52,676 bases of DNA from a virus (IMGVR_UViG_3300007346_005272:1-52676), one strand, 5' to 3'; shown: positions 25,831 to 39,436, counted from the stretch's first letter. The notes: a model not told the origin generated them from the letters alone. Made by a program: numbers and translations.

Positions 25831-27348
25831 TTACGATTTAGTTCTACGTGGATGCTTCTTAGGGAGAAGGTCATTATCGGTTGTATACTTAGGATTCGAC
25901 GGTTTACCGCTAGACACGAGTTTCAAGAATGCGTTGACACGACCCATAGCCCACTGCTGACGACCCATCTTTGGGCGGTGAGTAGCCGAGAAAGCACCGG
26001 CACCTCTACGCCAAACAGCCTTAAGCATACCTAACGTCACCTTGCGTTCAGGCTTGTTACGCTTCTCCATCTTCTCATTATGCTCTTTGACCTTGTTTTT
26101 CAAGGAAGTCTCAACCGCAGCCGAAAGCTTAATCCCGCCACGGGTACTAGCCGCCGTTCCCGGCTTGTTTCGTCTAGACCCCCGGATACGTTCCGAAGGC
26201 TTCGCTGGCGTCTTAGGATCGTTTGGCCCATAACGTCTAGCTGCTTTTTGACGAGTCTTCCAATTCTCAGGAATCAACTCGGTGCGGCCTAAAGCCCTGG
26301 CACGCTTCACGATATGCTTTTTGGTAGCCTCACGATTCTTGCCCAAACCATAAGCCTGGATAGCGTTACGCAAATCCCCGACATCCCGAATCGGGAACGA
26401 ACCGTCAGGTAACGCCCAACCACGCTTCGCATACTCCATCCGGCGAGCACGCGTGTAGTAACGTTTTTCTTCAATTGAGTTAAACGACTTTTCGGTACCT
26501 TCGACACGGGCAACAATATTCTTGGCCCATGTATATCCGGTATCGCCACCCCACAAAGCATGAGCAATTCTACCATTAGAAGGGAAACCTTTTTCACCCG
26601 GTCTAAACCCGTCAGCGTTTGCATCAGACTGATGTCTATCGAAAAACGCCTTCATCCTCTTTACAGTCTTGTACGGAAGATTCTTGCCATTCGCAATGTC
26701 CCTAGCACGAGCGATACCTACAGCAGTACCCCCACGTTTAAACTCTTTACGCCACGCCAATGCTCGCTTCGCTTCTTCTACCATACCCTTCGTGGGGGTA
26801 AACGAATCAGAAGCCGTAACAGATTTAGCCGAAACCAAGCCACCACCCGGCAACGTCTCAATGCCTCGTGGCCCACGCTCACGAAGTTTTTCCCACGCAC
26901 GTAAATCTGTAGCAACACGACGAGTTGGTCTTTGCAACCTCAAAACCGGTGAACCGCCGATACTCAAATGGCCGTGAGCCGCATTGTAATCTTCAGGAGT
27001 CATGCACGGCGCCCAAACCCCTTGCCGGGTCTGATGCGCACCGGCACACCCCATCTTGCTTGCGGCCTGTTCTGCAGCTTCACGAGTCGGGAACTTGTTC
27101 TTCCCTTTACCCTTCGCTTTCAACTCTAAAAAGTCGTAGAAGTTTTTCTTCTTCTGTTGCCGCTTCTTCCACTCACGAAAAGCAGGGTTACCGACCCGGA
27201 TCAGCTTCGTCAGATCCTTAGGTGACTCACACGGACCCCAAGCATCGTCGCCCACTTTGTGTGCTCCCGAACAACCCAAAATCTTCGACAGCTCTTTTGC
27301 CATCTCTTCTGTAGGAACTGTCTGACCTTCCAAAGGATCTTTAGCCAT
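25831..27348 (-). CDS. Basic multi-module head-associated protein
   Basis: Two GCxGAH...PC modules, a GGT.VG..RAR...RM..FF.RH...LWGG module, an ALPDGSFPI...NAIQAYG module and a C-terminal RRG.GAF...HRP...QWAM.RVN module. Start taken as MAKDPLEG (SD AAGGA). Confidence 0.7.
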   Translation of the reverse strand: MAKDPLEGQTVPTEEMAKELSKILGCSGAHKVGDDAWGPCESPKDLTKLIRVGNPAFREWKKRQQKKKNFYDFLELKAKGKGKNKFPTREAAEQAASKMGCAGAHQTRQGVWAPCMTPEDYNAAHGHLSIGGSPVLRLQRPTRRVATDLRAWEKLRERGPRGIETLPGGGLVSAKSVTASDSFTPTKGMVEEAKRALAWRKEFKRGGTAVGIARARDIANGKNLPYKTVKRMKAFFDRHQSDANADGFRPGEKGFPSNGRIAHALWGGDTGYTWAKNIVARVEGTEKSFNSIEEKRYYTRARRMEYAKRGWALPDGSFPIRDVGDLRNAIQAYGLGKNREATKKHIVKRARALGRTELIPENWKTRQKAARRYGPNDPKTPAKPSERIRGSRRNKPGTAASTRGGIKLSAAVETSLKNKVKEHNEKMEKRNKPERKVTLGMLKAVWRRGAGAFSATHRPKMGRQQWAMGRVNAFLKLVSSGKPSNPKYTTDNDLLPKKHPRRTKS

Positions 27349-27352
27349 GTTA

Positions 27353-27928
27353 CTATCCTTGCTCTTCGCTAGGAACAACCCCGCCACTTAATTTGATAAA
27401 ATCTTGAACATACTTAGGGTCTTTCTCTTTCTCGACCTTGTTAAGTATCGCATAACTATATTCTAGTATCTCTCGCTGCGTTGCATCGTCAATATCCGCT
27501 TCTGCACCGGGCATGTTGATATTAATACCCCACCCGAAAAATACAGCCTCCATAAAGGCATCAACATCGGCAGGAATAAGCAAGCCAGTGTTAGATGAAA
27601 AGAAAAAGATGTAATCTGCCAACTCGCCGTCAGACATGGCCTCAATGCGCTGCTTTGTTAACATCGCCTTAGCGTTGAACTCATCAATAGCTGTGTACGC
27701 CTCAGAGTATTCTGACCTGTCAATCTCGGACAGCTCAGGAAAGAAGAACCTGAGGCGCTGCTCGGTGAACATGGGAGTATCAATCTCACGAAGCTTCTCT
27801 ATCTCAGCAAACACACGATCAACCTTGGCTTGACTGTGCATAGTTGAATGCGCCTCAGCAGACCGAGGATCCTGCACCCGAATAATGACGAAAGCATCAT
27901 CTGTCGTCTTGTAGTACGTCTCGTTCAT
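27353..27928 (-). CDS. Hypothetical acidic protein
   Basis: 191 aa; ATGA-coupled to the upstream gene. Confidence 0.65.
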   Translation of the reverse strand: MNETYYKTTDDAFVIIRVQDPRSAEAHSTMHSQAKVDRVFAEIEKLREIDTPMFTEQRLRFFFPELSEIDRSEYSEAYTAIDEFNAKAMLTKQRIEAMSDGELADYIFFFSSNTGLLIPADVDAFMEAVFFGWGININMPGAEADIDDATQREILEYSYAILNKVEKEKDPKYVQDFIKLSGGVVPSEEQG

Positions 27929-28131
27929 ACGTCAACTTCCTCAATTCGCCACATGGCCGCAGAACGACCAAGCATATCACTAATGCTCCTAAACTCTTTA
28001 CCGTCAGCCCACCGCACCATGTCTAAGTGGAGCTGAGGGTCAGCAAACTGCATATCAATCATTTTTTCGTTCTCAAAAACCACGTATCCGTAGTTCTTGC
28101 CGTTGAAGTAGAAATTATGCCGCTTCGCCAT
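27925..28131 (-). CDS. Small hypothetical protein
   Basis: About 68 aa; SD AGGTG; overlaps its neighbours. Confidence 0.55.
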   Translation of the reverse strand: MAKRHNFYFNGKNYGYVVFENEKMIDMQFADPQLHLDMVRWADGKEFRSISDMLGRSAAMWRIEEVDV

Positions 28132-28357: not shown

Positions 28358-28362
28358 CGTTA

Positions 28363-30936
28363 TCACTTATCCAAATCAACTAAGAAGTCGCCAGGGTCAC
28401 CATCAAAGATGGCAACATCTGGGACTTTCGCTCCAGCATACACTTCCTCGTACAGATTCCACAACGTGCGCCTATACCATTCTTCAGTTTGCTCTGTTTT
28501 AGGAATCCGCTCCATGGCCTCACGAAGACCTTCCATTACTTTAGCTTTTCTACGAGCATAATCCGTAGGATAATTCCACAGGCGGCGCTGCGCTTCCCAC
28601 ACAATAGACTGTACCTCACGAGGATTCAATCCATATTTCTCAGCTATCCGAATAGCTGCTTCCCTGGCTGCCCAATAGTTTCCATTGAACCCGCCCGACC
28701 CCGGCTTTGGTTTAAACGAAGTCTTCATTATCTCATCGTTGGAACCAATAAGCATCAACAGAGATGCGTTAAAATGGTGCGTGTCTGCAGTCAAACTCTT
28801 GAACCTAGTATCGTTAGGATCAACAATGTTGTTATAGAAAGATCTAACTTTTGACTGCGTGCTCAAGTTATCAGTGATAAACCGCTGCACGAATTCCCCT
28901 GTACCCAAATCAGGATTCTCTTTATCTGCCTTAAGAATACGAGCAACTTTAGTCCAAGGATCATTTTCAGCATTAGCAGCATGAGAAGTAGTTCCCTTCG
29001 CTTTTTTCAAAACAAAAGAAAATGAGCCATCAGCGTTCGGAGACATTCCAACTTCTCGAATAACATCCCCATCCAAACCAAACGATTCTGAAGCTTTTAG
29101 AACTTTACCCAAAACAATATCTGGCTGATCAGAAATTCTACCCGCCATATTTCCGCCCATAGACTCGACCCACTCGGCAGCTGTCGTGGTATTAAACACA
29201 GACAGTTCTTCTGTTAAGCGATCAACACGGGCCTGTGCCGTTTTAACTGAAGCTAAATGCTTTTTCGCTCTACTCTTCTTCTGTTTTAACTCGCTTAATC
29301 TTTTTTGAGCAGCCATCAACGAGTTTGCTTTTGTGGCAGCAGCGGACGCAAACATACGCTCCGCCACATCAGCCATAGGGGGATCTTCTTTAAAAATCCT
29401 AACAGCATTAATTGCCGAAGGTACATTGCGCTCCCAGGAAGTACCAGCAGACAAAACCGCCATTGCTGCTGCAGCGGTCTCTACCCGCACGCCATGCTTA
29501 TCAGCCGTATTGTTAGCCAAACGATTAGCCGCATCATACCAAACCTGCGTAAGTCTAGCATCATCAGTCAAATTGCCATCAGCATCAACCATGCTTCCAC
29601 GCCGCATAGTTTCTTCAAGATTAGCCTCCATGTGACCAATCACCCAATCAAGCTTCTCCTCATCAGAAGCATCAGGACCAATTCCAGCATTCTCCATCAA
29701 ATCATTTAGATGCGGATAGCCTTTAAAAATATCCGCAACAATAGACTTGCGTTCAGCATCAGTAACATCAGCAAGACGTTGAGTCTCTGCAGCAACTCTG
29801 GGAGTAGCACCCGGATTTCCTACGACAACACCCGCACGTTCTCTAGCCGCATCACCACGAAGCAAACCAACAATCTCATCCGCATCAGCCTGCCTCAAAG
29901 TAATAAGCCGATCCGTAACAGAATCCTGCTTACCACGCATCGTATCATAATCCGAAGTAGGTAAACGACCAGTATCAGCCATAAACCGTTTAACCCCAAC
30001 AGAGTTACCCTGCTCCGACAACTCCGCAACCAACGAAGTAACCGACGCCGCAACCTCATCAGCACGGCCATCATCCAAACGGCGACGCAACTCAACAACA
30101 GCAGGATGATTCGACTCAGAAGCCTTTTCAAGGAAATCAGCAAGCGCCTCTTGATCTCTCAAATTCACGCCATCAACCAAAACACCCGAATGCGAAACCG
30201 GATGCAAACTCATCCCATCATCATCCGAAGAACCCATAATGTCCAAAGGACTCCGAGACGGATTAGACAAAACAAAATCCATCAAAGCCAAACGAACCAC
30301 ATCATCAGTATCCGCCTGCGACACACTCATCTCCGGACGCAAATCACGAGTATCCCCAACCACAACCGAATCAGGCATCTCCATCAAAACCGCAAACGAA
30401 CCATTCTCCCCAACGTTACTAGCCACACGCATACGGCCCTGAGCAAAACCAAACTCCTCAGCAACACGAGAAGCCAAAATCTCTACACGGCCAGCATCTT
30501 CCAAAGCATCCTCACCATCATGATGCTTCAAACCATACACCACGCCAGTAGACGTATCCCGAAACTTCAACATACCGTCCGGAGTTGTACGATCCGCAAT
30601 AACCTCAAACCGGCCACCACCATCAGCAATATCCCGAACAATCGTTTCACCTAAAAACTCGTCAGGCACCGCAGACAACGAACCGCCATCAACAACATGA
30701 TAAACCGCCGACTCAACATCACCAATCGACGTATTTCCGTTCTCTCTACTAACAACCGTGGGCGCACCAGTAACCACACGCTTCGGATCAAGATCAGAAC
30801 GATAATCTGGATTATACCGCTGCGCCACACCATTAGGGGTACGTGGACGAGTAGGATGAACTTCGCAGAACATCTTCTCAGCAATCTGTTCAATTATTTT
30901 GTTAGTAATAAAACTCTGTGTAGAAAAATCAGACAT
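28363..30936 (-). CDS. Multidomain protein: degenerate HipA/PI3K-like kinase plus HhH-glycosylase-like domain
   Basis: YGLK...EILASRVAEEFG...DFVLSNPSRS...HPVSH (degenerate N.DRH...IDH); WYDAAN...AAAAMAVLS...WERN...KVRSFYNNI...LTADTHH...VQSIVW. Confidence 0.6.
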   Translation of the reverse strand: MSDFSTQSFITNKIIEQIAEKMFCEVHPTRPRTPNGVAQRYNPDYRSDLDPKRVVTGAPTVVSRENGNTSIGDVESAVYHVVDGGSLSAVPDEFLGETIVRDIADGGGRFEVIADRTTPDGMLKFRDTSTGVVYGLKHHDGEDALEDAGRVEILASRVAEEFGFAQGRMRVASNVGENGSFAVLMEMPDSVVVGDTRDLRPEMSVSQADTDDVVRLALMDFVLSNPSRSPLDIMGSSDDDGMSLHPVSHSGVLVDGVNLRDQEALADFLEKASESNHPAVVELRRRLDDGRADEVAASVTSLVAELSEQGNSVGVKRFMADTGRLPTSDYDTMRGKQDSVTDRLITLRQADADEIVGLLRGDAARERAGVVVGNPGATPRVAAETQRLADVTDAERKSIVADIFKGYPHLNDLMENAGIGPDASDEEKLDWVIGHMEANLEETMRRGSMVDADGNLTDDARLTQVWYDAANRLANNTADKHGVRVETAAAAMAVLSAGTSWERNVPSAINAVRIFKEDPPMADVAERMFASAAATKANSLMAAQKRLSELKQKKSRAKKHLASVKTAQARVDRLTEELSVFNTTTAAEWVESMGGNMAGRISDQPDIVLGKVLKASESFGLDGDVIREVGMSPNADGSFSFVLKKAKGTTSHAANAENDPWTKVARILKADKENPDLGTGEFVQRFITDNLSTQSKVRSFYNNIVDPNDTRFKSLTADTHHFNASLLMLIGSNDEIMKTSFKPKPGSGGFNGNYWAAREAAIRIAEKYGLNPREVQSIVWEAQRRLWNYPTDYARRKAKVMEGLREAMERIPKTEQTEEWYRRTLWNLYEEVYAGAKVPDVAIFDGDPGDFLVDLDK

Positions 30937-30937: not shown

Positions 30938-33900
30938 CTAACACCCTATCTCGTTAATGTCTGCCGAAGAAAGATCAATAACACCTTCATCAATAGTAAA
31001 ATCACCAAGCTTCTGATTGCTTCTATCTGCATAACTACCCAAAGCATTAATCTCATCAACAGATGTTATTCTACTAACAGAACCTGCCGGAATGAAGTCA
31101 TTGACTTCATCCATCAAAGCGAGGGCCTCAGCATTGTTAAATGATAGATAAGAGTCTTTGAACAACTTCACAACGTGGCCCTCATGCTTGCTGCCAGTCT
31201 TAGCCCGCAAAGCTTGTACGAATTCAGGATACTGCGCCCAGTCTTTAAATTTATCATCACCGAGCTGCAAATTTTGATTCAGTAGCGAGGCTACACGATC
31301 TCGCTTACTGTCGTCTCCGTCGAAAACCAGCAACGCAGTAATCTGGTAACGAGACAACGACTGGCCTTTATCTATAGCGTCTTTAGCCCCGTCATAATTC
31401 TTAACCAAATCCCTAAACGCTAAATTCAAATTTTTAATCTTATACTCTGTGTTAGAACGGACACCTTTCTTCGGCCAAACATATTTACCGTCCCAACCCA
31501 CATCAAGATTATGATTTTCTTTAAAGCCCGCAGCAAACGCCATGCCCAAATATCTAGCGTTGAGCAAATCAGAAATTCCACGCTTTCTATTGTCCAGCTT
31601 TAGAATACTGCCATCAGGTAAGGGCACTGAAAAAGGAAACTCTGGATCATCTCTACTGTTTACAACCACATAGTCGTGCTGTACGCTATAACTTCCATCA
31701 GATGAGAAAGCTAAAGTACGTACCACATTACCCGTGGGGCTGACCTTCTGACGAGTTAACTCATTTCCGTCCTCATCAAATACCGTCACATACAGATCAG
31801 AAACCAAACCCAATTCATCGAATGTGGAGATATAAACACTGTCTGCATTTGACACGTTATCAATCTCAACCATTACTGGTCTATCGTCATCTGTTCTAGC
31901 ATCATACGCAGCTACGATCGTACGCTTGCTACGATCTTTAGCATCCTTTGGATCAGACGCATTTAAAAGCTTCAACGCCCACTCGCCTAGCTTTCCTTCA
32001 GACTGAAGCCGATATAAAGTGTCATAAGGTGTTTCGCCCGGAAGCGAAACATCATATTCCTCTGGTGTTAGCCCCGAAAGCCCCAACGTCAGAATTCCCT
32101 GCGTGCTTGCTTTCTTCCTTTCCCGGATAGCAACCTGCCAGACAGGAACATCGTTTGGTCCAGGCAGCAAATCAGGGTCATTCACAACATAATTAATTTT
32201 TCCAGCAACATCGCCTATTGTTTTGGCACGGGCATCTCTAAATTCTGTTTTGAAAGCAATCAAAGCCGCCAAATTTTGTTCTGCGCCGTCCACCCCATAC
32301 AAGTTATCAATAGACATCTGCAAAGATGCCATAGCGACCACAAACTCACGATCGCTAATACTTCTGACAAGTCTCTCAATATCTCGATCGTTATCTAAGA
32401 ACTGACTATACAATCTGTCCAGATCCTCGCCCGCTCTGGACATGTTTGAGCTAACACGCTGCAGTTCAAAACCACGCTTCATATGAGAGATCGTGTCTTT
32501 CAGAACTCTTTCAGTCACTGCTTTATCTTCTGCCGAATAAGTTAATCCAGCAGCATCAGCACGCCTAAACATATCATTAATCATGGCATCAGCAACTGAT
32601 TCATACATGCTCACGTTGTGTATATCCTTAACAGAACGTCCCAACATTCTCTCAAGCTCTTTTTCCATAACAACGTTCTTAGTGAAAAGATCGTACGCAT
32701 CGCCTTCCGAAGCATTTAACTGAGCGTAAACACGATCAACCATACGTGCCGCATAATCTTCAACATTATCAAGATACTCGTTTTCTGAAGTAGACAAGAT
32801 GAGGTAAATCAAAGCCTCTTCAGATCTTTCAGAACTTGGGCGATCCAACTGACCTAACTCTCGCCTTCTTCTATCTGCCGTTAAATTGTAAATGGTGTCA
32901 TACGCCATGCTTAACATTCTACGATCCGGGCCGTATCCTTCAGTCTCAGCAATCCGCCCTAACGCATAAGACAAATACGAGTACTCTTCCAAAGAAAGAC
33001 TATCCGGATCCTCACCAACTTTCGCCACATACTTCGACACCTGATTTACCATGGCATCACGGAACTGCTCCTGCGTAAGCCCCAACCTGCGATCTTCCTC
33101 ATCAGTCTCGGGCATCGGTAACTGGTCAAGCAGATCAGCATAATCAACCATGCTTGCCACATCCCACAAACCGTCTTGATCGTTCAAATCTATCAAAGCT
33201 TCAATGCGTTCTTCTGCACGCTCACCTACAGACAGGGCCGTCACACCCTCTTCTGCGACTTCATCAACCGTAGTCGCTACACGTCGATTCTCTGCAATAC
33301 CAACAAGACGACCAGCAAACTCATCAATATCGCTATCAAGTCGAGCAGCAGACTCCAAACCCGGCGACCGAATGCCGTAAAAATCTAGATACGCCTGACG
33401 CTGCGCCTCAACCGTGGCGATATCCTGCAACCGTGAAGCCAACGCCTCCCAAGACGGCTCATCCAACTCATCAGCCCCACTAAACTGAACACGACGCAAA
33501 GCAGCAGATAAATCATTACCGATGTTATCCAAAGCTGCACGCACATCATCAGTCAACGGAGGCATATTCACAGGAGTCAGCCTATCCAACTGATCAACAG
33601 GAGGAAGCCGCTCTGACAACTTATCAAAGTCAGCAATAACCTCATCGAAAGCAGCCTGAGTCTCAAAGACACCTTGCCTGAAACTTCCCTCTTCGATATC
33701 ATCTACAATGACACCAGCCAAGCGACCTGAGCCGGGTCTGTTGCGGGCAAACTTACCACGAGCATCCTGCAAATTACCCAAGCTTAACATCGTGGAAGAC
33801 CTCAAACTACGGCCACAAGTAGTGCCACGCATATTCGTTAACTGACCGCCCCCAGTAAAACCAGGGGGACAACGATAACGACTGATCGACGGATCAAAGA

Positions 33901-35746
33901 ACGCTAATGCCGAAGCAAACCCGCCCAACGCCCGACGCAAAGGAACACCGCCAGGACGGACACGCTTAAAGTTCACCCCGCCCAAATACGCCTGATCCTT
34001 ATAGGCATCTATCTTAAACGCAATATCCGCCTGATACTCTTTATAGAGTGTATCGGGTTGGACCGCCTTTGCGGTTATGAAAAAAGGGTTTACGGACTTG
34101 CCCTCCGGAACAAGCTCAAAGATCGGATCGTCCTTAGCACGACGTGGTGCAGAACGAGACAAAAACGTTTCATAAACCCACTGAGGAACCTGACGAACCG
34201 TGCCCCCCGGCCCCTGTACTTTAACTAGTTTGTTGTCGGCCTGTTCAACATTAAAGCGGCCCTGCTCATTAAGATTGCCGAACTCGACAACGAACTTACC
34301 GCCAGAATCGTCAGCAAACCCTCGCAGACCGGCAGTCGGATCCGGAAGATCAGCATCACGAGAAATGCGAGTAGGTAGAGTACGACTTAAAGACGCACGA
34401 TCTGCAGGACTAAGCTCACCGCCCTCTCTACCGAAACGAACAACACCGACCTCAGGAATCGCAAAGTACACATCCCTAAAGCCCGCATTGATAGACTGAA
34501 CAGCCTCAACGATTTCAGGAGAATCAAACGAAGCATCAGGATTCTTGATAATCAACGAGCCGTCCACAACATCGTCAAAGTCGCCGGTCTGATTAGCGAA
34601 GAAACTCAAACCTGCAACAGGCTCAAGAATAACACCATCTCGTTTAGAAACCCGAATGCTCCAACGATCATCATCAATAGCGTTCAGAACCGTGTTAACA
34701 CCAGCGGCACGAGCAGTGACATTGACTTTCTTCGGAGTGGTCGGAATCTGGGCAGCACGAATAAAGACGCCAGGATTTCTTTGAGAGCGCAAATCGCCAA
34801 TACTCGAAATAAGTTCAGCGTTTCTAGCTAACCTAGCCAGCGCCCGACCCGTACCACCGATGAGAGATCCCGGACCAACCCCCGGAATACCCAAAACCTG
34901 GGCACCACAAGTACTGAAACGACGATCAGTGAACGTACCGCCATTCTCAAACCCAGGCGGACAACGGAACCGGTTACGGGCACCACGACCCGAACGGCCC
35001 AATAAGCGACGACCAGCGCCCGCCAAACGACGGCCACGACCGCTACCTCCACCCGGAGTTAGCGCACGATAAATCCCTGAACGCACAGGACTTCTGACAA
35101 CACTAACATTGCCAGGAAGAGCACTGGAGCCGACAGCCTGAGCTACCTGACCAAAGCGACTGTTAGAACCAAACAAGCCTACACGCTTAACAGAAAACTC
35201 ATCATGCTCAACAGCAATTGGTGTATCCAAATACTGCCTAAAAATAGCAGCCTTCATATCAACAACATTCTGACGACCCGCAATCGGCTGAACCAAAATG
35301 CCGCCATAAGCACGAGACTCGCTCACAGCATAACGCAAAGAAGAACCAGAATACTCTGGCTGACTCAAATCAACAGACTTTGCTTTTCGAGCAGCAGAAC
35401 GAACACGACGAGTCAACTTGCCACGCCGCTTCCGGTTCCCCTTACCAGCGCCACGCTTACCCTTGCCCTCATTCGGCCACTTACCAGTCAACTCGTGGTG
35501 AAGCCAAGCACAAATACGCTGCGGCTTACCACCAAACTGCGGCTTGTCCATCAAAATAACGACACACCGACGAAAGCCACCCGGCTTCTTCATGATCGGA
35601 CGCCAATACTTCAGCAGATCTTCAAGATTGCCACGACGAGGACCACGGCCACGAGTTAAAGCAGTTAACTGGTCGGCGTTAGGCCCAATTTCAGGACCAA
35701 CCTTAGAAAAATAAGGTCCGATTTCAGGAGTTTCAGTTTCCATCAT
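30938..35746 (-). CDS. Large head-associated polyvalent protein with two RCPPG modules and a C-terminal GNAT-like domain
   Basis: N-terminal LKYW...GGFRRC...CAWLHHELTGKWP; RFRCPPGFENGGTFTD...CG and RYRCPPGFTGGGQLTN...CG; VQHDYVVV...RKRGIS...GF...DGKYVWPKKG. Start could be 35746 or 35761. Confidence 0.6.
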   Translation of the reverse strand: MMETETPEIGPYFSKVGPEIGPNADQLTALTRGRGPRRGNLEDLLKYWRPIMKKPGGFRRCVVILMDKPQFGGKPQRICAWLHHELTGKWPNEGKGKRGAGKGNRKRRGKLTRRVRSAARKAKSVDLSQPEYSGSSLRYAVSESRAYGGILVQPIAGRQNVVDMKAAIFRQYLDTPIAVEHDEFSVKRVGLFGSNSRFGQVAQAVGSSALPGNVSVVRSPVRSGIYRALTPGGGSGRGRRLAGAGRRLLGRSGRGARNRFRCPPGFENGGTFTDRRFSTCGAQVLGIPGVGPGSLIGGTGRALARLARNAELISSIGDLRSQRNPGVFIRAAQIPTTPKKVNVTARAAGVNTVLNAIDDDRWSIRVSKRDGVILEPVAGLSFFANQTGDFDDVVDGSLIIKNPDASFDSPEIVEAVQSINAGFRDVYFAIPEVGVVRFGREGGELSPADRASLSRTLPTRISRDADLPDPTAGLRGFADDSGGKFVVEFGNLNEQGRFNVEQADNKLVKVQGPGGTVRQVPQWVYETFLSRSAPRRAKDDPIFELVPEGKSVNPFFITAKAVQPDTLYKEYQADIAFKIDAYKDQAYLGGVNFKRVRPGGVPLRRALGGFASALAFFDPSISRYRCPPGFTGGGQLTNMRGTTCGRSLRSSTMLSLGNLQDARGKFARNRPGSGRLAGVIVDDIEEGSFRQGVFETQAAFDEVIADFDKLSERLPPVDQLDRLTPVNMPPLTDDVRAALDNIGNDLSAALRRVQFSGADELDEPSWEALASRLQDIATVEAQRQAYLDFYGIRSPGLESAARLDSDIDEFAGRLVGIAENRRVATTVDEVAEEGVTALSVGERAEERIEALIDLNDQDGLWDVASMVDYADLLDQLPMPETDEEDRRLGLTQEQFRDAMVNQVSKYVAKVGEDPDSLSLEEYSYLSYALGRIAETEGYGPDRRMLSMAYDTIYNLTADRRRRELGQLDRPSSERSEEALIYLILSTSENEYLDNVEDYAARMVDRVYAQLNASEGDAYDLFTKNVVMEKELERMLGRSVKDIHNVSMYESVADAMINDMFRRADAAGLTYSAEDKAVTERVLKDTISHMKRGFELQRVSSNMSRAGEDLDRLYSQFLDNDRDIERLVRSISDREFVVAMASLQMSIDNLYGVDGAEQNLAALIAFKTEFRDARAKTIGDVAGKINYVVNDPDLLPGPNDVPVWQVAIRERKKASTQGILTLGLSGLTPEEYDVSLPGETPYDTLYRLQSEGKLGEWALKLLNASDPKDAKDRSKRTIVAAYDARTDDDRPVMVEIDNVSNADSVYISTFDELGLVSDLYVTVFDEDGNELTRQKVSPTGNVVRTLAFSSDGSYSVQHDYVVVNSRDDPEFPFSVPLPDGSILKLDNRKRGISDLLNARYLGMAFAAGFKENHNLDVGWDGKYVWPKKGVRSNTEYKIKNLNLAFRDLVKNYDGAKDAIDKGQSLSRYQITALLVFDGDDSKRDRVASLLNQNLQLGDDKFKDWAQYPEFVQALRAKTGSKHEGHVVKLFKDSYLSFNNAEALALMDEVNDFIPAGSVSRITSVDEINALGSYADRSNQKLGDFTIDEGVIDLSSADINEIGC

Positions 35747-35924
35747 CAGAAGCCTTTCCATCGTCCAAGGGAACGTACTCTACAAGCACATCATCCTGAT
35801 AAAAGTATTTTACCGTATCTTTGTGCCAACTATCGCCTACAACAGCATTGCTGCCTACATTAAATAATGCCTCATTTGCCTGACTGATCACTTGCTCTAA
35901 GCGAGCGGGTCTCATAAGCTGCAA
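35733..35924 (-). CDS. Small hypothetical protein
   Basis: 63 aa ORF filling the gap between the 630-aa and 1607-aa genes. Confidence 0.45.
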   Translation of the reverse strand: MQLMRPARLEQVISQANEALFNVGSNAVVGDSWHKDTVKYFYQDDVLVEYVPLDDGKASDDGN

Positions 35925-35935: not shown

Positions 35936-37828
35936 TCAGGCCAAATCTTCACCATCGAGCATGTTCTGGAATTCGGCCAAAGCGTTGATAAGCTCAACGT
36001 CTTCTTCCTTCTCCGCAGGCGCATCAGCCTCCGCTTCAGGTGCCTCTGGCTCTTCCTCGTTCCAATCCGCAGGAATCATGTCTTCCTTGCCAAGCTCCTT
36101 AGCACGCTTCATGATGTGCTCCTTAGCCGCAGCCTTATCCTTGGCACGACCGTAAGCCTGGATAGCGTTATCCAGATCCGCAGCATCAGCAATTGGGAAA
36201 GAACCGTCAGGAAGAGCGTCGCCAGACTCAGCCATGGCCTCACGCTGTTCACGAGAGTACATGCGCTTGATCTCAAGCTCAGCCTCAAGAGCCTTCAGTT
36301 CATCTTCCTCGTCCATGTCGTAGTCGAAAGGATTCTCAACTTCGTACTCATCGAAGCCAAGGACCTTGCCCTCAGGAGAAACGAACACATCGTAGCTCTT
36401 CTCGTTGGTATCAACCTCAACGACGTACACGTCCTGATTAGCAAACACATCGACCAGAACGCCCATCACGTCGCCCTTGATGTCGAGATCCTCAAGAGCC
36501 TTAACGGCAGCGTCTTCGGCGTCGGCCTGAGATACAATGTCCTGCATCTCACCAGACTTGGCATCCATCTCATCTTCATCAATACGCAGCCAGCCCATCT
36601 CCTCGCCCTCGCCGGACAGGAAGACCTGAATGCACGAACCATCGGCACGCTTCACATCGACAACGAAAATGTCGTCTGCTGTTGAGTAACCAGAACCAAC
36701 AATCTCTGAACCTTGATGTAGTGACTTGACCTGGGACTCAATATCTCCTAAACCGGGGAGATCTTCGGTAGGCATACACCCTCCTTGACAAAACTCGCAT
36801 GGTTGATTAACTGACTTACGGCTAAATCCGCACAGGAAGTCATCTGACTTCATGCCCTCTGCGGGCATTCCTGCAGGAGCATCTTCCTGTGCCTGCTGCT
36901 GAGCAGCCTGCCGAGCTTCACGAGCAGCTTCAGCCTGTTCGGCTTCACGCTCTTTCTTGGCAGCCATTTCTTTCTTGCTCAGATCCATCCACTCATCGTG
37001 GGAAGCGCAAGGCATGAACATCTTACCTGCACGGTGCATGCCTTCGCAACCAAGAGCTTCAGCACGTTCCATCGCTTCTTCAGCAGTTTCAAATACGTCT
37101 TCAACAGCGTTCTCGTCTTCTGCCTTCCGCATAGCGTTCAGCTCAAGGGGACTGCGACGACGATAGCGTCTACCATAGCCCTTGCTGGTGCCCTCTTCGT
37201 AAACATCGACAGCCTCAAAAGCTCCCTTAGCGTCTTCGTCAAGACCATCGTAGTCTTCATCGGAAACTAGCTCACCGTCTTCCATCATTTCCTTAAACCG
37301 AGAGTCGGTCAAGAAAATTGAAGGCTTGTCACTCTTAGGCGCACGCATCATTGACATGATGACTGCGGCCTTTTCGCTCACATCATCATCTTCGTCGTCT
37401 TCGGCGTCTTCGTCGGCTTCTTCTTCGTCGGCTTCCTCGCCATCTTCGTCGGCTTCCTCGCCATCTTCGTCGGCTTCCTCGGCGTCCTCGTCATCCTCGT
37501 CATCCTCGTCCGCCTCATCAGCTTCGTCTTCGTCAGCCTCGTCCTCGTCATCTTCTGACTTGAAACGGAACATCCAACCCATAGGAGTATCACCCTTCTC
37601 GTCCATGACAAGAACCTTCTCCATGAGCAGCTGATCTTCTTCAGAAAGCTCAGCAAACTCCTCTTCAGAAATTAGCTCACCAGCATCCTGCATCTCCTTG
37701 AAACGGATATCGGTCATGAAAACAGAAGGCGCACCCTTCTCGTCCTCATGCATGCCCTTCTCTTCACCGTCCAGCATCGCCTGAATTTCTTCAAACTTCT
37801 GAAGGTCTTCGTTAAGATTTTCACTCAT
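35936..37828 (-). CDS. Highly acidic scaffold-like protein with PepSY-like, Cys/His and ALPDGSFPI modules
   Basis: Follows the protease. Internal duplication PS.F.TD.RFKEM...GEL.S; GCEGMH...MPC; IVSQADAEDAAVKA...VYVVEV...DVFVS.EGKVLG (PepSY-like); SD AGGAG. Confidence 0.65.
   Translation of the reverse strand: MSENLNEDLQKFEEIQAMLDGEEKGMHEDEKGAPSVFMTDIRFKEMQDAGELISEEEFAELSEEDQLLMEKVLVMDEKGDTPMGWMFRFKSEDDEDEADEDEADEADEDDEDDEDAEEADEDGEEADEDGEEADEEEADEDAEDDEDDDVSEKAAVIMSMMRAPKSDKPSIFLTDSRFKEMMEDGELVSDEDYDGLDEDAKGAFEAVDVYEEGTSKGYGRRYRRRSPLELNAMRKAEDENAVEDVFETAEEAMERAEALGCEGMHRAGKMFMPCASHDEWMDLSKKEMAAKKEREAEQAEAAREARQAAQQQAQEDAPAGMPAEGMKSDDFLCGFSRKSVNQPCEFCQGGCMPTEDLPGLGDIESQVKSLHQGSEIVGSGYSTADDIFVVDVKRADGSCIQVFLSGEGEEMGWLRIDEDEMDAKSGEMQDIVSQADAEDAAVKALEDLDIKGDVMGVLVDVFANQDVYVVEVDTNEKSYDVFVSPEGKVLGFDEYEVENPFDYDMDEEDELKALEAELEIKRMYSREQREAMAESGDALPDGSFPIADAADLDNAIQAYGRAKDKAAAKEHIMKRAKELGKEDMIPADWNEEEPEAPEAEADAPAEKEEDVELINALAEFQNMLDGEDLA
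37380..37555. repeat. Low-complexity acidic tract with 21-bp tandem unit (EEADEDG)
   Basis: cttcgtcggcttcctcgccat repeated 2-3 times within a D/E run. Confidence 0.8.
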
Positions 37829-37858
37829 TATAAACTCCTAAATCCTTTATAGAGTATC

Positions 37859-39436
37859 TTATTGAGCACCCTCATCGGTGTCAATGGGTTCTGTAATGCT
37901 AATGCTAGGAACAAATTCCAAAGTAGCCAAAGAATCCGCTACCTTAACCATAAGTTCATCATGATCCATCTTCGTAGAGAAGTGAACATCCACGCCCTCA
38001 TCTGTCTTGAAGGAGAAAACAGGCACAGCCGAAAGCGCAGACGAAACATCAAGAGCCTCATCATCAGAGCACTTAACGTGTACCACGAAACCAGAAACAG
38101 CCTTTTCGCCCTGCTCCATTGGACGAGACATCGGAGCCTCCGTCAGATAATCCTCAACGCCAGCAATAAGCTCAAGCGTGGCTTCACGTAGTGTGCCTGC
38201 ACCACGAAGCTTCAACATCTCGTTGTAAGCCATCAAAAGAAGCGCCATGGGGTCTTTGAGATACTCAGGTGTCTTTGACTCCCCGTACCCATGACCCTTT
38301 TCTTCGGTACCGCAAGAACAGCCGCCAGTAGCATCCTTTGCCTCTTCGACCTCCACACCGGCCAAGTAGTTGTTGTGAACATTGATGTTAGCATTACCAT
38401 CAAAACGTTTCAGTGCCTCAAGGTACTCCTCGTGCGTGTCACAAGGAAGATAGCCACCACCATGTGAGTGGGTGCCAGAACAACCAAATGTTTTCGACCA
38501 TGCTAAAGCAATATCAGGAGTCGCCCAAGTACCGTGCTCGTCCTCTGCGTCACGGATACCTTCAGGCTCTTCAGCGTCCTTCTCGTCAGGGTCCTTAACC
38601 ATCATCGAAGGAGGAGCCGAATCACCAACCGGCGTATACGACATCGTAGGCGTCACCCTCGTAGGCTTCCCAACCATGATGTTGCCTTCGTCCATTGAGA
38701 ACGTGGCCATCCATGTCATGTCTTCGCCTGTCTCAAAGATTACCGAGTTTCCGTCAACACTGATAATTTTTACCGGCTTACGAAGAGCTTGAGAAAGCGC
38801 ATTGCCAATCATTGATGACATTGCGTCGGCTCTATTTGACGGCTTACCCATTCCGTTGTCATCCATATGCATTTTTGTCACTGTGCCTTCTTCATCGTCT
38901 TTTACAGAAATAGTACCGGTTAGCTGATTAGCGCCGTGTAGTACGGGAGAAATCTCGTATAGTTCAACTTCTTTAAGCATGTTTGCTTTTTGCATAGCAT
39001 CGTAATCGGCGGTTAGTGTTTTGTAACCAATCGACCACTCTTGATCATTTCCATAAAATGCAACATTTGCGAACGCCTCACGACCACGCTCAGTATTGAG
39101 GTTAAACTGAACTTTTGCGTAAAGTCCGCCAATCTTAGCATTCTTCATCTTCTCAGGCAGTCTTGGATCATTTCTAGAAACTTCGTAAATCTCCAGAACC
39201 TTACCGATGGGCTGATTCCAATCGTGGCCCCAAACAACTCGGGGCTTACGGCGCTTTAAAGATTCGTTAAAAGCCCCAGAAATAACAACATCGCCAACTG
39301 AATCGCGATTGCCAATACCTGAAACAAATGCTTCGACAATACCTTCGGCTTTATCAATGCCAATCTGGCCTGAAATGGCCTTAAAAGTGAAGTCTTCTTC
39401 CTTTTCAGATGCATTTTCCATAACGACAGAAGTCAT
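37859..39436 (-). CDS. HK97-family prohead protease with long C-terminal extension
   Basis: DSVGDVV..GAF, WGHDWNQPIGK, WSIGY, ELYEISPVLHGAN; extension contains GCSGTH...LPC. Confidence 0.9.
   Translation of the reverse strand: MTSVVMENASEKEEDFTFKAISGQIGIDKAEGIVEAFVSGIGNRDSVGDVVISGAFNESLKRRKPRVVWGHDWNQPIGKVLEIYEVSRNDPRLPEKMKNAKIGGLYAKVQFNLNTERGREAFANVAFYGNDQEWSIGYKTLTADYDAMQKANMLKEVELYEISPVLHGANQLTGTISVKDDEEGTVTKMHMDDNGMGKPSNRADAMSSMIGNALSQALRKPVKIISVDGNSVIFETGEDMTWMATFSMDEGNIMVGKPTRVTPTMSYTPVGDSAPPSMMVKDPDEKDAEEPEGIRDAEDEHGTWATPDIALAWSKTFGCSGTHSHGGGYLPCDTHEEYLEALKRFDGNANINVHNNYLAGVEVEEAKDATGGCSCGTEEKGHGYGESKTPEYLKDPMALLLMAYNEMLKLRGAGTLREATLELIAGVEDYLTEAPMSRPMEQGEKAVSGFVVHVKCSDDEALDVSSALSAVPVFSFKTDEGVDVHFSTKMDHDELMVKVADSLATLEFVPSISITEPIDTDEGAQ

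Follow-up and report, generated by a model that had tools for sequence, protein, structure and literature searches.

Among the closest described systems, the polyvalent proteins of phages (Iyer, Burroughs, Anand, de Souza, Aravind 2017) are depicted as anchored by a MuF domain or a portal and as bearing kinase, 2H and ART domains, with their packaging put forward by inference (PMC5512222). The internal proteins of T-even phages form, according to the cited account, a diverse set in which a capsid-targeting sequence is the sole shared element (PMC3012670). The Dar system of phage P1 includes Hdf, DarA, DdrA and DarB (PMC12810830, PMC9024508), and DarA–Hdf pairs are reported to lie on the inner capsid surface, to contact DNA and to be missing from heads after DNA release (PMC12810830). 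The ejection or inner-body proteins of giant phages such as SPN3US and phiKZ are described as a large head-internal mass, which the prohead protease processes and which is then delivered to the cell (PMC7411985, PMC5694885). Here we analyse a gene cassette from an uncultured, marine-type myovirus clade which we read, with moderate confidence, as encoding head-interior proteins, at least some of which probably enter the host along with the DNA.

Layout of the head operon

The cassette lies in an IMG/VR myovirus fragment (IMGVR_UViG_3300007346_005272:1-52676; hereafter the window, that is, the whole 52.7-kb stretch of DNA analysed), which CheckV places at 35% of the genome; contigs carrying relatives reach 156 kb. 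On the minus strand, the order is portal, S78 protease, 630-, 1607-, 857-, 191- and 518/505-aa ORFs and then the HK97-type capsid gene:

39539..41041, minus strand: portal, 500 aa, at the upstream end of the head operon (Pfam Phage_portal, E 9.4e-51; PHROG portal families)
37859..39436, minus strand: prohead protease, 525 aa (Peptidase_S78, E 1.7e-14; TIGR01543 proheadase_HK97, 60.8 bits, cut-off 59)
35936..37828, minus strand: 630-aa very acidic protein in the scaffold-gene position (31% D+E, net charge ~-135)
30938..35761, minus strand: 1607-aa protein (ORF call)
28363..30936, minus strand: 857-aa protein, beginning 1 nt past the 1607-aa stop (coordinates)
27353..27928, minus strand: 191-aa acidic protein, role not assigned (88-89% identity in relatives L004-L008)
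25831..27387, minus strand: 518/505-aa very basic protein, a string of five modules, immediately preceding the capsid gene (net charge ~+59)
24355..25644, minus strand: HK97-type major capsid protein, 429 aa (Phage_capsid, E 1.4e-47, residues 154-424)

A reading made earlier from the sequence only had placed four large ORFs between protease and capsid, and the ORF calls, with both ends named by Pfam, bear this out (630, 1607, 857 and 518/505 aa). These genes fill a protease-to-capsid insert of ~12 kb on a single strand, in which neighbours overlap or are separated by a few bases. The last of them can start at a GTG (518 aa) or at Met14 (505 aa), the latter being the form in 5/5 relatives with a complete gene. 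Ahead of its Pfam domain, the capsid protein has an N-terminal stretch of ~150 aa that is delta-domain-like. The same record encodes the sheath and further tail proteins at a distance of 15-30 kb from the cassette, and a ribonucleotide reductase gene is found inside the structural block.

Pfam searches found no MuF domain in the record, which agrees with the earlier proposal of a delivery system lacking a recognisable one, and the head-region proteins scanned gave no Pfam families beyond those named here at E <= 0.01. The 191-aa protein matched no family in Pfam, PHROG or NCBIfam. A tblastn search with the 1607-aa protein as query returned zero matches, and thus no cultured member of the window's clade, from 50,697 phage records, and two scans of 185,579 species genomes, made with narrow search patterns, returned no relatives.

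Small modules shared with head proteins

Three of the cassette-region proteins share DUF3721, one of several small recurring modules. In the protease, the S78 domain (residues 31-176; 38909-39346) is followed by an extension of ~340 aa that has one copy, and the 630-aa and 518-aa proteins have the other copies and further modules:

38432..38500, minus strand: DUF3721 copy in the protease extension (PF12518 six-frame E 6.4e-8, over the cut-off; regular-expression match at residue 318)
37375..37554, minus strand: poly-D/E tract of the 630-aa protein (repeat family D1, 13 copies, 9-15 nt period)
36998..37093, minus strand: DUF3721 copy in the 630-aa protein (PF12518 E 4.4e-12; Pfam E 1.9e-9, 37.5 bits)
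36041..36277, minus strand: ALPDGSFPI copy 1, residues 518-596 of the 630-aa protein (BLASTP E 4e-21 to copy 2)
35939..35998, minus strand: acidic amphipathic C-terminal tail of the 630-aa protein (motif common to module proteins)
27223..27315, minus strand: DUF3721 copy 1 in the 518-aa protein (PF12518 E 3.5e-7)
26998..27093, minus strand: DUF3721 copy 2 in the 518-aa protein (PF12518 E 1.7e-10)
26488..26802, minus strand: module A, all-helical, residues 196-300 of the 518-aa protein (phrog_2859 E 5.3e-29; block pLDDT 89-96)
26239..26475, minus strand: ALPDGSFPI copy 2, residues 305-383 of the 518-aa protein (BLASTP and DNA match to copy 1)
25867..26049, minus strand: DUF5824-like module, residues 447-507 of the 518-aa protein (PF19141 E 4.6e-5, 24.0 bits, cut-off 25)

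When the entire 52.7-kb record was searched in six frames, PF12518 matched at exactly four places (E 4e-12 to 3.5e-7), in agreement with four regular-expression matches to the GCxGxH..PC module in three proteins; both the count and the family name, DUF3721, had been given correctly by the sequence-only reading. DUF6582, another family that it named, gave no match even at E <= 10, and DUF5824, which it had also named, matches none of the three modules that it listed and instead the C-terminal end of the 518-aa protein, just under the cut-off. The ALPDGSFPI copies of the 630- and 518-aa proteins are 52% identical over 79 aa (BLASTP E 4e-21), and their likeness at the DNA level extends further than had been claimed, to 152 nt (26258-26409 versus 36060-36211, 70% identity). 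DUF3721 and the ALPDGSFPI module are both absent from the 1607- and 857-aa proteins.

The supposition that the modules are tied to head genes holds strongly: other phages carry them joined to portals of the HK97, lambda and Mu types, to prohead proteases of the S78 and XkdF families, to a protease–capsid polyprotein and to an ADP-ribosyltransferase. Nine of the 518-aa homologues to which a source assigns portal, protease or ART domains were scanned with Pfam; DUF5824 is over the cut-off in 8/9, alongside Phage_portal and DUF3721 (P0086), a lambda-type portal (P0119), a Mu-type portal (P0120), Peptidase_S78 (P0056), Peptidase_S78_2 (P0066) or ADP-ribosyltransferase domains (P0081), and in such fusions module A adjoins portal and protease domains and an ART domain. 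Two cultured phages encode, immediately after the portal gene, a single polyprotein in which module A is N-terminal to S78 and Phage_capsid: gp04 of Synechococcus phage S-CBS3 and gp38 of Roseobacter phage CRP-701, the latter also containing DUF5824. The ALPDGSFPI profile reaches 5020 representative clusters at E <= 0.001, and among the 88 proteins scanned of its best 150 matches are found S78 (7), S78_2 (2), DUF3721 (6), NUDIX (2), the 2'-5' RNA ligase superfamily (3), ferritin (1) and PEP mutase (1), with a recognisable cargo domain missing in most. The tail motif occurs in 30/149 ALPDGSFPI-module proteins, with 30/31 occurrences at most 45 residues from the end, and within the window in the 630-aa protein only.

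Neighbourhoods were compared across 80 loci with capsid relatives (64-99% identity), a set that is non-independent and contains many near-duplicates; in it, the complete ORF immediately preceding the capsid gene resembles the 518-aa protein in its DUF3721 region in 57/62 cases, with eight different sets of the four modules, and an ORF of at least 1000 aa is present upstream of the capsid gene in 36/43 loci whose upstream sequence extends for 6 kb or more. The 630-aa homologue comes directly after the portal, a ~200-aa ORF and the S78 protease in most of the 73 related loci L017-L089, and in most the ALPDGSFPI module lies near the C terminus of this scaffold-position ORF; in L072, a 141-aa protein consisting of the module alone is found immediately before the capsid gene. 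Residues 101-150 of the 630-aa protein show 42-48% identity in relatives that are otherwise 84-100% identical.

AlphaFold2 renders the 518-aa protein as beads on a string (mean pLDDT 75.6, pTM 0.31), and in the N-terminal part of the 1607-aa protein block pLDDT is 72-95 over residues 265-555 (~90 from residue 330). Foldseek against the PDB returned nothing at E <= 0.001 for either protein model, and the best VIA Z-scores (5.1 and 6.2) are below the tool's own trust level; as neither model clearly matched a known fold, the functions that we propose for the modules and the N-terminal part are guesses.

A conserved carrier and a replaceable payload

The 1607-aa protein divides into a conserved N-terminal part, which we call the carrier, and a variable C-terminal part, and it is followed by the 857-aa gene:

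33770..35761, minus strand: carrier, residues 1-664 (common to 71 proteins of 974-2811 aa, most sharing nothing else)
35462..35659, minus strand: module C, residues 35-100, with two Cys and two His invariant (phrog_6439 E 3.8e-6)
34904..34966, minus strand: RCPPG..CG knuckle 1, residues 266-286 (regular expression)
33812..33874, minus strand: RCPPG..CG knuckle 2, residues 630-650, at the conserved/variable border (regular expression)
30941..33769, minus strand: variable C-terminal part, residues 665-1607 (10-57% identity per block to L006/L007)
30157..30816, minus strand: degenerate HipA/PI3-PI4-kinase-like domain, residues 41-260 of the 857-aa protein (BLASTP E 3e-13 to the kinase-like domain at the C terminus of P0164, a carrier protein)
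29218..29559, minus strand: DUF7178 region, residues 460-573 of the 857-aa protein (PF23802 E 1e-18, 68.4 bits, cut-off 27)

The RCPPG..CG module does occur twice, as had been noticed, and the two knuckles cross-match between homologues (BLASTP E <= 1e-5). Eight columns of knuckle 1 are invariant across 50 homologues (C267, P268, G270, G274, G275, F277, C285 and G286), and module C has 31 invariant columns within residues 37-99 of a 50-sequence alignment. In 8 related loci module C also forms an ORF by itself (204-216 aa), and it occupies the extension, in place of the window's arrangement, in 12 related S78 proteases whose S78 domains are 54-75% identical to that of the window (11/12: 64-75%). 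A survey of 85 matches to residues 1-700 of the 1607-aa protein separates the parts: 71 align up to residue ~487-931, most stopping at 650-664, and the remaining 14 comprise the 12 module-C proteases, one protein with module C and a partial carrier, and one stand-alone payload ORF. A payload ORF (P0199) starts just ahead of knuckle 2, a 545-aa carrier-only ORF (L125) is directly followed by a 518-aa homologue and the capsid gene, and the carrier core and module C are encoded separately in L158, L161 and L167.

Behind this N-terminal part, the family carries varied enzyme domains, as the sequence-only reading had anticipated: among the 85 matches are NUDIX (16), PI3_PI4_kinase (3), the 2'-5' RNA ligase superfamily (3) and HTH (2), counts that come from the sources' precomputed Pfam annotation with 4 proteins checked directly, and 39/71 carrier-family proteins have, near their own C terminus, the kinase-like domain with which the 857-aa protein begins in the window. 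The claim of enzymatic cargo is not supported in the window itself, where the large proteins have no recognisable enzyme domain. Sequence searches of the variable C-terminal part against Pfam, NCBIfam and the PDB returned nothing. In the 857-aa protein, the kinase-like domain, for which the ESM Atlas offers HipA_2 as a fold lead, no longer has its catalytic motifs: DRHxxN and IDxG are both replaced in 8/8 members of the window's clade.

Near-identical relatives have had the C-terminal half of the 1607-aa protein and the 857-aa protein swapped for diverged alleles. In L004-L009, the portal, protease, 518-aa protein and capsid protein are 93-99% identical; the carrier is 78-100% identical in L004-L006, and the head genes flanking the variable part are 89-97% identical to those of L006/L007. 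Past knuckle 2, identity to L006/L007 falls from 92-96% to 50-52% within the next 50-residue block, and the 857-aa protein is 47-49% identical to its copies in L004-L008. Against L008, dN is 0.61 in the variable part and 0.05 in the N-terminal part; dN/dS is 0.03-0.19 in core head genes and 0.27-0.41 in the variable parts, below 1 and so giving no sign of positive selection there, and the rise of dS to 1.5-2.1 in the latter suggests that diverged alleles have taken their place.

Proposed mechanism and alternatives

We suggest that the cassette proteins would be assembled into the prohead along with the portal, protease and capsid protein, a location for which the fusions of modules to three portal families, two prohead-protease families, a protease–capsid polyprotein and an ADP-ribosyltransferase argue. 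In one layer, DUF3721, ALPDGSFPI, module A, the DUF5824-like module, module C and the RCPPG knuckles, reshuffled between genes, would be building blocks of the prohead interior, some with a function of their own; the 630-aa protein is probably a scaffold- or core-like partner that later leaves or is degraded, and the 518-aa protein is probably DNA-associated. The second layer would be the polymorphic 1607-aa giant, in which a ~650-aa N-terminal carrier (up to the second RCPPG knuckle) may hold a C-terminal payload that is swapped by recombination: NUDIX, an intact PI3/PI4-HipA-like kinase, a 2H phosphoesterase or HTH in homologues, and in the window an unrecognised 940-aa part, to which the 857-aa gene would add a degenerate kinase-like domain and DUF7178. 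The products would be present in virions and may be processed by the S78 protease, and some, once ejected into the host, could act against host defence. This effector role rests on the homologues, as no enzyme is recognisable in the payload of the window and both the catalytic loop and IDxG are missing from the kinase-like domain there.

The earlier view of the shared modules as docking tags, with DUF3721, ALPDGSFPI and RCPPG binding the capsid delta domain, portal or scaffold and thereby loading unrelated cargo, appears rather unlikely to us. It would suit the presence of modules on many different proteins beside or fused with head proteins, the C-terminal placement of ALPDGSFPI in the scaffold-position ORF of most of the 73 loci, the module-only protein before the capsid gene in L072, the few enzyme-like domains among the 88 proteins scanned and the single conserved acidic tail of 30/149 module proteins (targeting peptides are C-terminal in the P22 scaffold and in encapsulin cargo). 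Yet the 1607- and 857-aa proteins lack both DUF3721 and ALPDGSFPI, so there is no common tag, and most of the 88 proteins have no recognisable cargo domain. Moreover, DUF3721, module A and DUF5824 occur on portals with nothing else, and module A and DUF5824 likewise on the protease–capsid polyprotein; as a tag would be purposeless on a head-building protein that is free of cargo, module A and DUF5824 fit better as passengers with a job of their own than as address labels. A purely morphogenetic set, in which the 630-aa protein would be the scaffold and the others core or size-determining factors of a large capsid, removed or degraded at maturation with nothing delivered, is also unlikely. The scaffold position of the 630-aa homologue after the protease in most related loci, its extreme acidity, length-variable D/E tract and conserved tail all accord with such a set, as do the resemblance of the protease–module fusions to protease–scaffold fusions, which occur in other phages, and the large head implied by the CheckV estimate and the 156-kb contigs. 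However, the NUDIX, intact kinase, 2H and ADP-ribosyltransferase domains of homologues would be left unexplained, as would payload replacement where capsid, portal and protease are 93-99% identical, and the capsid protein's own long delta-like stretch makes a separate scaffold less necessary.

That the genes are non-virion accessory 'morons' (for host take-over or anti-defence) lodged in the head operon and acting after expression in the cell is improbable. Their homologues carry enzyme domains of the host–phage conflict type, the region is as variable as other accessory islands, and the ribonucleotide reductase gene shows that non-structural genes occur in the structural block; against this, the cassette has modules and fusions in common with portals, proteases and capsid polyproteins, capsid relatives as distant as 64% identity retain its arrangement, and late expression with the head operon would presumably come at the wrong time for take-over unless the products were packaged. 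The recombining C-terminal part behind a conserved N-terminal anchor is a pattern of tail fibres too, but we think it very improbable that these are host-recognition or tail-associated proteins, given that the genes lie between protease and capsid with the sheath and tail genes 15-30 kb off, that homologue payloads are intracellular enzymes and not receptor-binding folds, and that module C also occurs in protease extensions.

Comparison with known systems

Read as a set of head-interior proteins that are in part delivered, the cassette resembles polyvalent proteins, as these are described, in its very large, multidomain products, its place in the head module of a terminase–portal phage, its portal fusions and cassette-like recombination, the kinase, 2H phosphoesterase, ART and NUDIX-linked domains, and packaging and injection by inference (PMC5512222). 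It differs in its anchor, which with no MuF in the record is the ~650-aa N-terminal part with module C and two RCPPG knuckles, and in that no enzyme domain is recognised in the copy of the window. With the T4 internal proteins and Alt, as portrayed in the cited account, it would share a diverse, fast-changing head-packaged set with one conserved targeting element, and basic internal proteins of T4 lie on DNA and are trimmed by the prohead protease (PMC3012670). The T4 element is a short N-terminal leader, whereas here a ~650-aa part or folded mini-domains would take that place, next to an S78/HK97-type protease and with the genes between protease and capsid gene. The T4 leader is cleaved by gp21, a protease of another family. 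Phage P1 offers the likeness of a myovirus described as packing large anti-restriction proteins in its head, with small partners on the inner capsid surface and the DNA (PMC12810830, PMC9024508). Compared by description only, the cassette differs from Dar in that no methyltransferase or helicase domains are seen. The Dar genes are not known to lie between a protease and a capsid gene. SPN3US and phiKZ belong to a different phage lineage with a different protease family. The likeness to their ejection or inner-body proteins is by description only (PMC7411985, PMC5694885).

The 630-aa protein invites comparison with HK97-, lambda- and P22-like scaffolds through its scaffold position and the C-terminal location of its conserved module and tail, and the occurrence of ALPDGSFPI on S78 proteases in 7/88 proteins scanned recalls protease–scaffold fusions. 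The P22 scaffold binds coat protein through its C terminus. Unlike these scaffolds, the 630-aa protein is extremely acidic and has DUF3721 and Cys-rich inserts, its capsid binding is putative, and the capsid protein keeps a delta-like stretch. Packaged internal or ejection proteins that lack MuF are a known kind, and it is to this kind that the cassette most likely belongs.

Head gene order and neighbourhoods

The record is a complete IMG/VR virus record (52,676 bases) that CheckV places at ~35% of a genome; given this estimate and the presence of tail sheath-like, baseplate-like, class II ribonucleotide reductase and recombination genes, we regard it as a fragment of a large myovirus, relatives of which lie on contigs of up to 156 kb. 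The Pfam families of an HK97-type head module (that is, portal, S78 protease and HK97-fold capsid protein) are found on one strand in this order, and the order is kept in six related loci (L004-L009); in an NCBIfam scan, the protease was the sole protein named. The series of proteins that the sequence-only reading had noted between protease and capsid gene is indeed present on the minus strand, in the order portal, protease, cassette and capsid. Below, residues 1-664 of the 1607-aa protein are called the carrier and the variable remainder the payload.

Head genes of the record, in gene order
39539-41041, minus strand: portal
37859-39436, minus strand: S78 prohead protease with a ~340-aa extension
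After the protease, minus strand: 630-aa protein, then a 63-aa ORF
After the 63-aa ORF, minus strand: 1607-aa protein, then 857-aa protein
After the 857-aa protein, minus strand: two small ORFs and a 191-aa protein
Directly before the capsid gene, minus strand: 518-aa protein (505 aa from Met14, as in relatives)
24355-25644, minus strand: HK97-type capsid protein

The large terminase gene (41241-42557, plus strand) sits immediately upstream of portal in the opposite orientation, and beyond it (42558-43541 and 43958-47067, both minus strand) are DUF932, two ParB_N-like, PAPS-reductase-like and methyltransferase genes. The class II (that is, B12-dependent) ribonucleotide reductase gene (21429-23378, minus strand) sits inside the structural block, two genes downstream of capsid. 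Among the structural genes on the tail side, flanked by an fn3-containing ORF and by the sheath-like gene, a second giant ORF (11011-16863, minus strand; 1950 aa) has a DEDD/DnaQ-type 3'-5' exonuclease domain at residues ~940-1135 and could be another virion-associated polyvalent protein.

Among 73 viral loci found through the ALPDGSFPI module, a search pattern that biases the sample towards orthologues of the 630-aa protein, the ORF bearing this module (~460-710 aa) almost always follows portal, a ~200-aa ORF and the S78 protease, which is the usual place of scaffold genes. A search through the capsid protein gave 80 loci (64-99% identity), and there the ORF directly upstream of the capsid gene matches the DUF3721 region of the 518-aa protein in 57 of 62 complete ORFs, in varying company. 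An ORF of at least 1000 aa is present in 36 of the 43 loci having at least 6 kb of upstream sequence. As many of the capsid-found loci are near-duplicates, these counts describe one clade, not independent events.

Modules in the 62 complete ORFs directly upstream of the capsid gene
All four modules: 21
DUF3721 only: 17
DUF3721 + ALPDGSFPI: 6
DUF3721 + DUF5824 + ALPDGSFPI: 5
DUF3721 + ALPDGSFPI + module A: 4
DUF3721 + DUF5824 + module A: 3
DUF3721 + DUF5824: 1
DUF5824 only: 1
None of the four modules: 4

A minimal form of the cassette, without payload, occurs on a 30,997-b IMG/VR contig (L125, locus coordinates 1-11125), where the order is portal, 218-aa ORF, protease, 630-aa homologue, 545-aa carrier-only ORF, 429-aa ORF and capsid gene; the 429-aa ORF is homologous to the 518-aa protein and lacks the ALPDGSFPI module.

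Small modules of the cassette

DUF3721 (PF12518) was found at exactly four places in the whole record, all within the cassette region. Three copies exceed the gathering score of 27 bits alone and the fourth reaches 26.8 bits, or 27.1 bits with its neighbours in frame; by whole protein, the scores are 37.5 bits (630 aa), 50.6 bits (518 aa) and 24.9 bits (protease). The family name proposed in the sequence-only reading is correct; that reading had also reported an ALPDGSFPI module in two proteins with DNA-level similarity and an RCPPG..CG element twice in the ~1600-aa protein, and both of these observations hold. The copies of the ALPDGSFPI module in the 630-aa and the 518-aa protein share 52% identity across 79 residues (E 4e-21), and at the DNA level they are 70% identical along 152 nt. 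The RCPPG..CG copies occupy residues 266-286 and 630-650 of the 1607-aa protein; given that the first has eight invariant columns in 50 homologues and that the two copies cross-match between homologues, this is a real duplicated element. The DUF5824 profile (PF19141, gathering score 25 bits), also proposed there, comes close to the cut-off at the C-terminus of the 518-aa protein (24.0 bits, E 4.6e-5, profile positions 66-126 only) and gives 25.9-36.2 bits in eight of nine fused homologues scanned, but the match lies in a different part than the modules that had been noted. DUF6582, the name proposed for the ALPDGSFPI module, found no support, as neither module-bearing protein matched at E <= 10 in a search whose HMMER filters drop most matches above ~0.1, so that a very weak likeness could escape.

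At the C-terminus of the 630-aa protein, the ALPDGSFPI module is succeeded by an acidic amphipathic tail, and 30 of 149 family members likewise have this tail at their very end. The D/E tract of the 630-aa protein (37375-37554, minus strand) is encoded by imperfect repeats with a 9-15-nt period, is the only poorly conserved part of the protein in close relatives and is flanked by a ~35-aa segment in two copies (residues 33-66 versus 168-201); the N-terminal 25 residues resemble the acidic C-terminal tail. Residues ~380-500 (~36329-36691) contain two beta-rich repeats that look PepSY-like by eye, a region in which Pfam gave no match, and 6 of 88 ALPDGSFPI proteins scanned carry PepSY.

DUF3721 also occurs in marine cyanobacteria. 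Scans of bacterial genomes with narrow search patterns, one from the 518-aa protein and one from an alignment (A1), found no relatives, and no paper found in our literature search mentions DUF3721, DUF5824 or DUF7178 (PF12518, PF19141 and PF23802).

Modules fused to head proteins in other phages

A search with the 518-aa protein found 2091 proteins at E <= 0.001, and nine of the best 120 of these, listed by their sources with portal, protease or ADP-ribosyltransferase (ART) domains, were scanned with Pfam. In these nine, DUF5824 is joined to an HK97-type portal together with DUF3721, to lambda- and Mu-type portals, to S78 and XkdF-type (S78_2) proteases and to ART domains, and module A (the phrog_2859 piece, residues 196-300 of the 518-aa protein) is visible in the sequences. 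In two cultured phages, tblastn finds module A at the N-terminal end of a polyprotein that, by Pfam, runs from module(s) through an S78 protease to an HK97 capsid protein; one is annotated 'major head protein' (Synechococcus phage S-CBS3) and the other 'major capsid protein' (Roseobacter phage CRP-701). In the jumbo Pseudomonas phage PaBG (KF147891.1, 107724-108086), a module A-like match overlaps two annotations, one for a 'putative DNA-binding protein' and one for a 'putative RNA 2'-phosphotransferase'. Module C, which in the record is located near the start of the 1607-aa protein, also occurs within the long extensions of 12 S78 proteases, the catalytic domains of which are 54-75% identical to that of the record. 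A literature search combining S-CBS3 with mass spectrometry returned nothing useful, and the main text of the roseophage paper PMC12629253 has neither the word 'protease' nor 'fused', its two matches to 'proteom' being to a proteomic tree.

With a four-sequence profile, ALPDGSFPI proves to be a large unnamed family of 5020 clusters at 50% identity (E <= 0.001), in which proteins of 96-1771 aa carry up to four copies each (among the best 150 of 5020). Most of the 88 proteins scanned with Pfam from these best 150 matches are without any Pfam family; the others include S78 (7), S78_2 (2), DUF3721 (6), PepSY (6), ChaB (4), the 2'-5' RNA ligase superfamily (3), NUDIX (2) and ferritin (1).

A conserved putative carrier with a variable payload

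Residues 1-700 of the 1607-aa protein, used as a query, found 85 proteins. The N-terminal part is shared by 71 of them (974-2811 aa), with most matches stopping at residue 650-664, just past the second RCPPG..CG knuckle; another 12 are the S78 proteases with module C, one (P0198) has module C and part of the carrier, and one (P0199) is a stand-alone ORF starting just before knuckle 2. Payload domains listed by the sources' Pfam column in carrier homologues are NUDIX (16), PI3_PI4_kinase (3), 2'-5' RNA ligase superfamily (3) and HTH (2). Our own scan confirmed a NUDIX domain at residues 1266-1371 of homologue P0141 and, in P0177, a 2H/LigT domain ahead of the carrier plus NUDIX; P0164 has a PI3/PI4 catalytic-loop region (25.1 bits, under the 27.1 cut-off) and P0174 has HTH and sigma region 4 motifs. 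Unlike P0177, P0141 and P0164, the 1607-aa protein of the record has no recognised domain. The carrier also occurs in pieces: in L125 the 545-aa carrier-only ORF is followed directly by the 518-aa homologue and then the capsid gene, and in three other loci (L158, L161 and L167) module C and the carrier core are separate ORFs. We argue, from the existence of both fused and split forms, that these parts probably work together physically.

Six close relatives have the same gene order and 93-99% identical portal, protease, 518-aa and capsid proteins. For the 1607-aa protein, identity in L004-L006 is 78-100% over the N-part, whereas 50-residue blocks of the C-part drop to 10-57% in L006 and L007; the 857-aa protein has 47-49% identity in close relatives. 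Raised dS in the variable parts points to an exchange of diverged alleles; with dN/dS below 1 throughout, there is no sign of positive selection.

Substitution rates among close relatives (Nei-Gojobori)
Core head genes: dN/dS 0.03-0.19
1607-aa variable part: dN/dS 0.27-0.41; dN up to 0.61, dS up to 1.5
857-aa C-part: dN/dS 0.28-0.36; dS 1.7-2.1
857-aa N-part: dN/dS 0.21-0.38

A kinase-like domain near the C-terminus of 39 of the 71 carrier proteins is homologous to residues 41-260 of the 857-aa protein (BLASTP, E 3e-13), indicating that this domain moves across the gene border. In an alignment of 27 such domains, DRHxxN and (I/F/Y)DxG are retained by most of the 19 copies borne on carriers, and both the DRHxxN loop and the IDxG motif are replaced in all eight members of the record's clade. 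The record's copy (30157-30816, minus strand) thus lacks the catalytic loop and the metal-binding aspartate of IDxG that mark HipA- or PI3-PI4 kinase-like kinases, and because of these losses the domain is probably inactive. Residues 151-250 are nevertheless 84-90% identical in relatives, which gives the domain the look of a conserved pseudokinase. In the ESM Atlas model, residues 84-363 resemble HipA-like kinases (TM 0.66-0.68 by target), a structural lead that agrees with the sequence link to the carrier-borne kinases. Further along, DUF7178 (PF23802) matches residues 460-573 with 68.4 bits (gathering score 27 bits), and the ESM Atlas model of residues 314-857 resembles DUF7178 phage proteins (DUF7178 cluster, TM 0.74 by target).

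Structure predictions

The AlphaFold2 model of the 518-aa protein (mean pLDDT 75.6, pTM 0.31) resembles beads on a string. Both DUF3721 units are helix-hairpin-helix structures, module A is entirely helical (block pLDDT 89-96), and the ALPDGSFPI module (block pLDDT 55-86) and the DUF5824-like unit are helical as well. The carrier model has disordered linkers and a module C folded into a small helical unit; between residues 265 and 555 its block pLDDT is 72-95 (~90 from residue 330). Neither model had a Foldseek match against the PDB at E <= 0.001, PDB sequence searches with single proteins and family profiles gave nothing better than E 0.05, and the ESM Atlas gave neither a model nor a usable match for the 1607-aa protein. 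In VIA-align against 48,161 chains, the carrier reached a best Z of 5.1, below the level that the tool notes call meaningful; around fifteen weak rows (Z 3.3-4.8) join residues 345-505 to JAMM/MPN chains (Rpn11, CSN5, BRCC36, AMSH, RadC and related ones), and the translation has no HxH motif, part of the metal site of active members, between residues 345 and 505. The best VIA score of the DUF5824 region, also below the meaningful level, was Z 6.2, with matches to three-helix bundles of a generic kind, among them sigma region 2 and MCM winged helix. The only clear BFVD matches were a homologue that is itself uncharacterised (E 1e-19) and, at E 9e-6, a 'prohead protease' with module C; rows to 'minor capsid protein' were weak (E 0.07-0.5). 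A complex prediction for the capsid protein (22-row alignment) and the C-terminal 121 residues of the 630-aa protein (30-row alignment) scored 0.01 against a mark of 0.32 and counts neither for nor against binding.

A proposed route into the phage head

We consider it reasonably probable that the cassette proteins are head-interior proteins. In other phages DUF3721, module A, DUF5824 and module C would be brought inside the prohead by fusion to portal, protease or capsid polyprotein and, given these fusions, the free-standing module proteins are most simply placed in the prohead interior too. The 518-aa protein, which is very basic (net charge about +59) and accompanies the capsid gene more constantly than any other neighbour, may be an internal protein lying on DNA, as described for T4 internal proteins and P1 DarA-Hdf (PMC3012670; PMC12810830). 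The 630-aa protein, very acidic with a net charge of about -135 and in scaffold position, may be a scaffold- or core-like partner, and the 1607-aa family would act as a carrier with an exchangeable payload. The enzymes of the homologues (NUDIX, kinase and 2H, and ART on a module A/DUF5824 protein) match the kinds assigned to packaged polyvalent proteins in an earlier survey (PMC5512222). We infer that the cassette proteins are present in virions, cleaved by the protease and ejected into the host.

A more far-reaching scenario, which we put forward tentatively and with more doubt than confidence, is that the mini-domains and the 650-aa carrier constitute a widespread, undescribed MuF-less protein route into tailed-phage heads, in which the modules network with portal, protease and inner capsid wall, the carrier passes on interchangeable effector payloads for entry into the host along with the DNA, and ALPDGSFPI with its acidic tail is a coat- or core-binding element reused by scaffold-like and basic DNA-associated proteins. 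The sequence-only reading had instead proposed that the small shared modules are docking tags that load cargo into the prohead. We find this version unlikely, given that the two largest proteins (1607 and 857 aa) are without the shared small modules, that several modules sit on portal or capsid polyproteins without cargo and that most of the 88 ALPDGSFPI proteins scanned lack a recognisable cargo domain; the docking idea would survive best for the ALPDGSFPI module and its tail.

The cassette points to another packing arrangement in abundant uncultured aquatic myoviruses (at least 309 capsid-relative stretches occur in IMG/VR), with a new carrier for exchangeable payloads, and the prohead inside may be the common context for DUF3721, DUF5824, DUF7178 and the unnamed ALPDGSFPI family (at least 5020 clusters at 50% identity). 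Cultured phages with some of the modules exist (S-CBS3 and CRP-701/406), which makes the idea directly testable, and a targeting element, if confirmed, could be used to load foreign proteins into HK97-type capsids.

Comparison with known systems

Head-packed proteins injected with phage DNA act first in infection and often counter host defences. To our knowledge, established packing routes comprise the leader peptide of T4 internal proteins, a short N-terminal targeting element that the prohead protease takes off, as well as polyvalent proteins anchored by MuF, the Dar proteins of P1 and the inner bodies of giant phages. A MuF-anchored polyvalent protein can be set aside here: as had been anticipated from the sequence, a recognisable MuF domain (PF04233) is absent, with no Pfam match in nine head-region proteins and none in a six-frame search of the whole record (as a control, the family was detected in 5 of 14 genomes). 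The 857-aa protein has a weak structural likeness to MuF clusters (ESM Atlas, TM 0.22-0.37). Polyvalent proteins in the broad sense (that is, several effector domains on one huge head-module polypeptide) are represented by homologue P0177, with 2H and NUDIX; P0141 has NUDIX and P0164 a kinase loop, whereas the 1607-aa protein of the record is without a recognised domain. The P1 Dar proteins (DarA, Hdf and DarB) are likened to the cassette by mechanism only.

Among 50,697 deposited phage records, the closest capsid proteins (46-48% identity) belong to actinobacterial myoviruses, namely Brevibacterium phage Cantare and Gordonia phages GMA6 and Chidiebere. Cantare and Chidiebere have extra genes between portal and protease rather than between protease and capsid gene, including an RNA ligase, a VIP2-like ADP-ribosyltransferase, 970-1040-aa proteins, lysin B and others, which suggests the same theme at another insertion point. 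The packing of diverse effectors into phage heads has precedents in T4, in P1, in giant phages and in the polyvalent proteins anchored by MuF; the differences here are the lack of MuF, a conserved carrier of ~650 aa without a known fold match, the location of the cassette between S78 protease and capsid gene, and the tying of several DUF families to the prohead interior.
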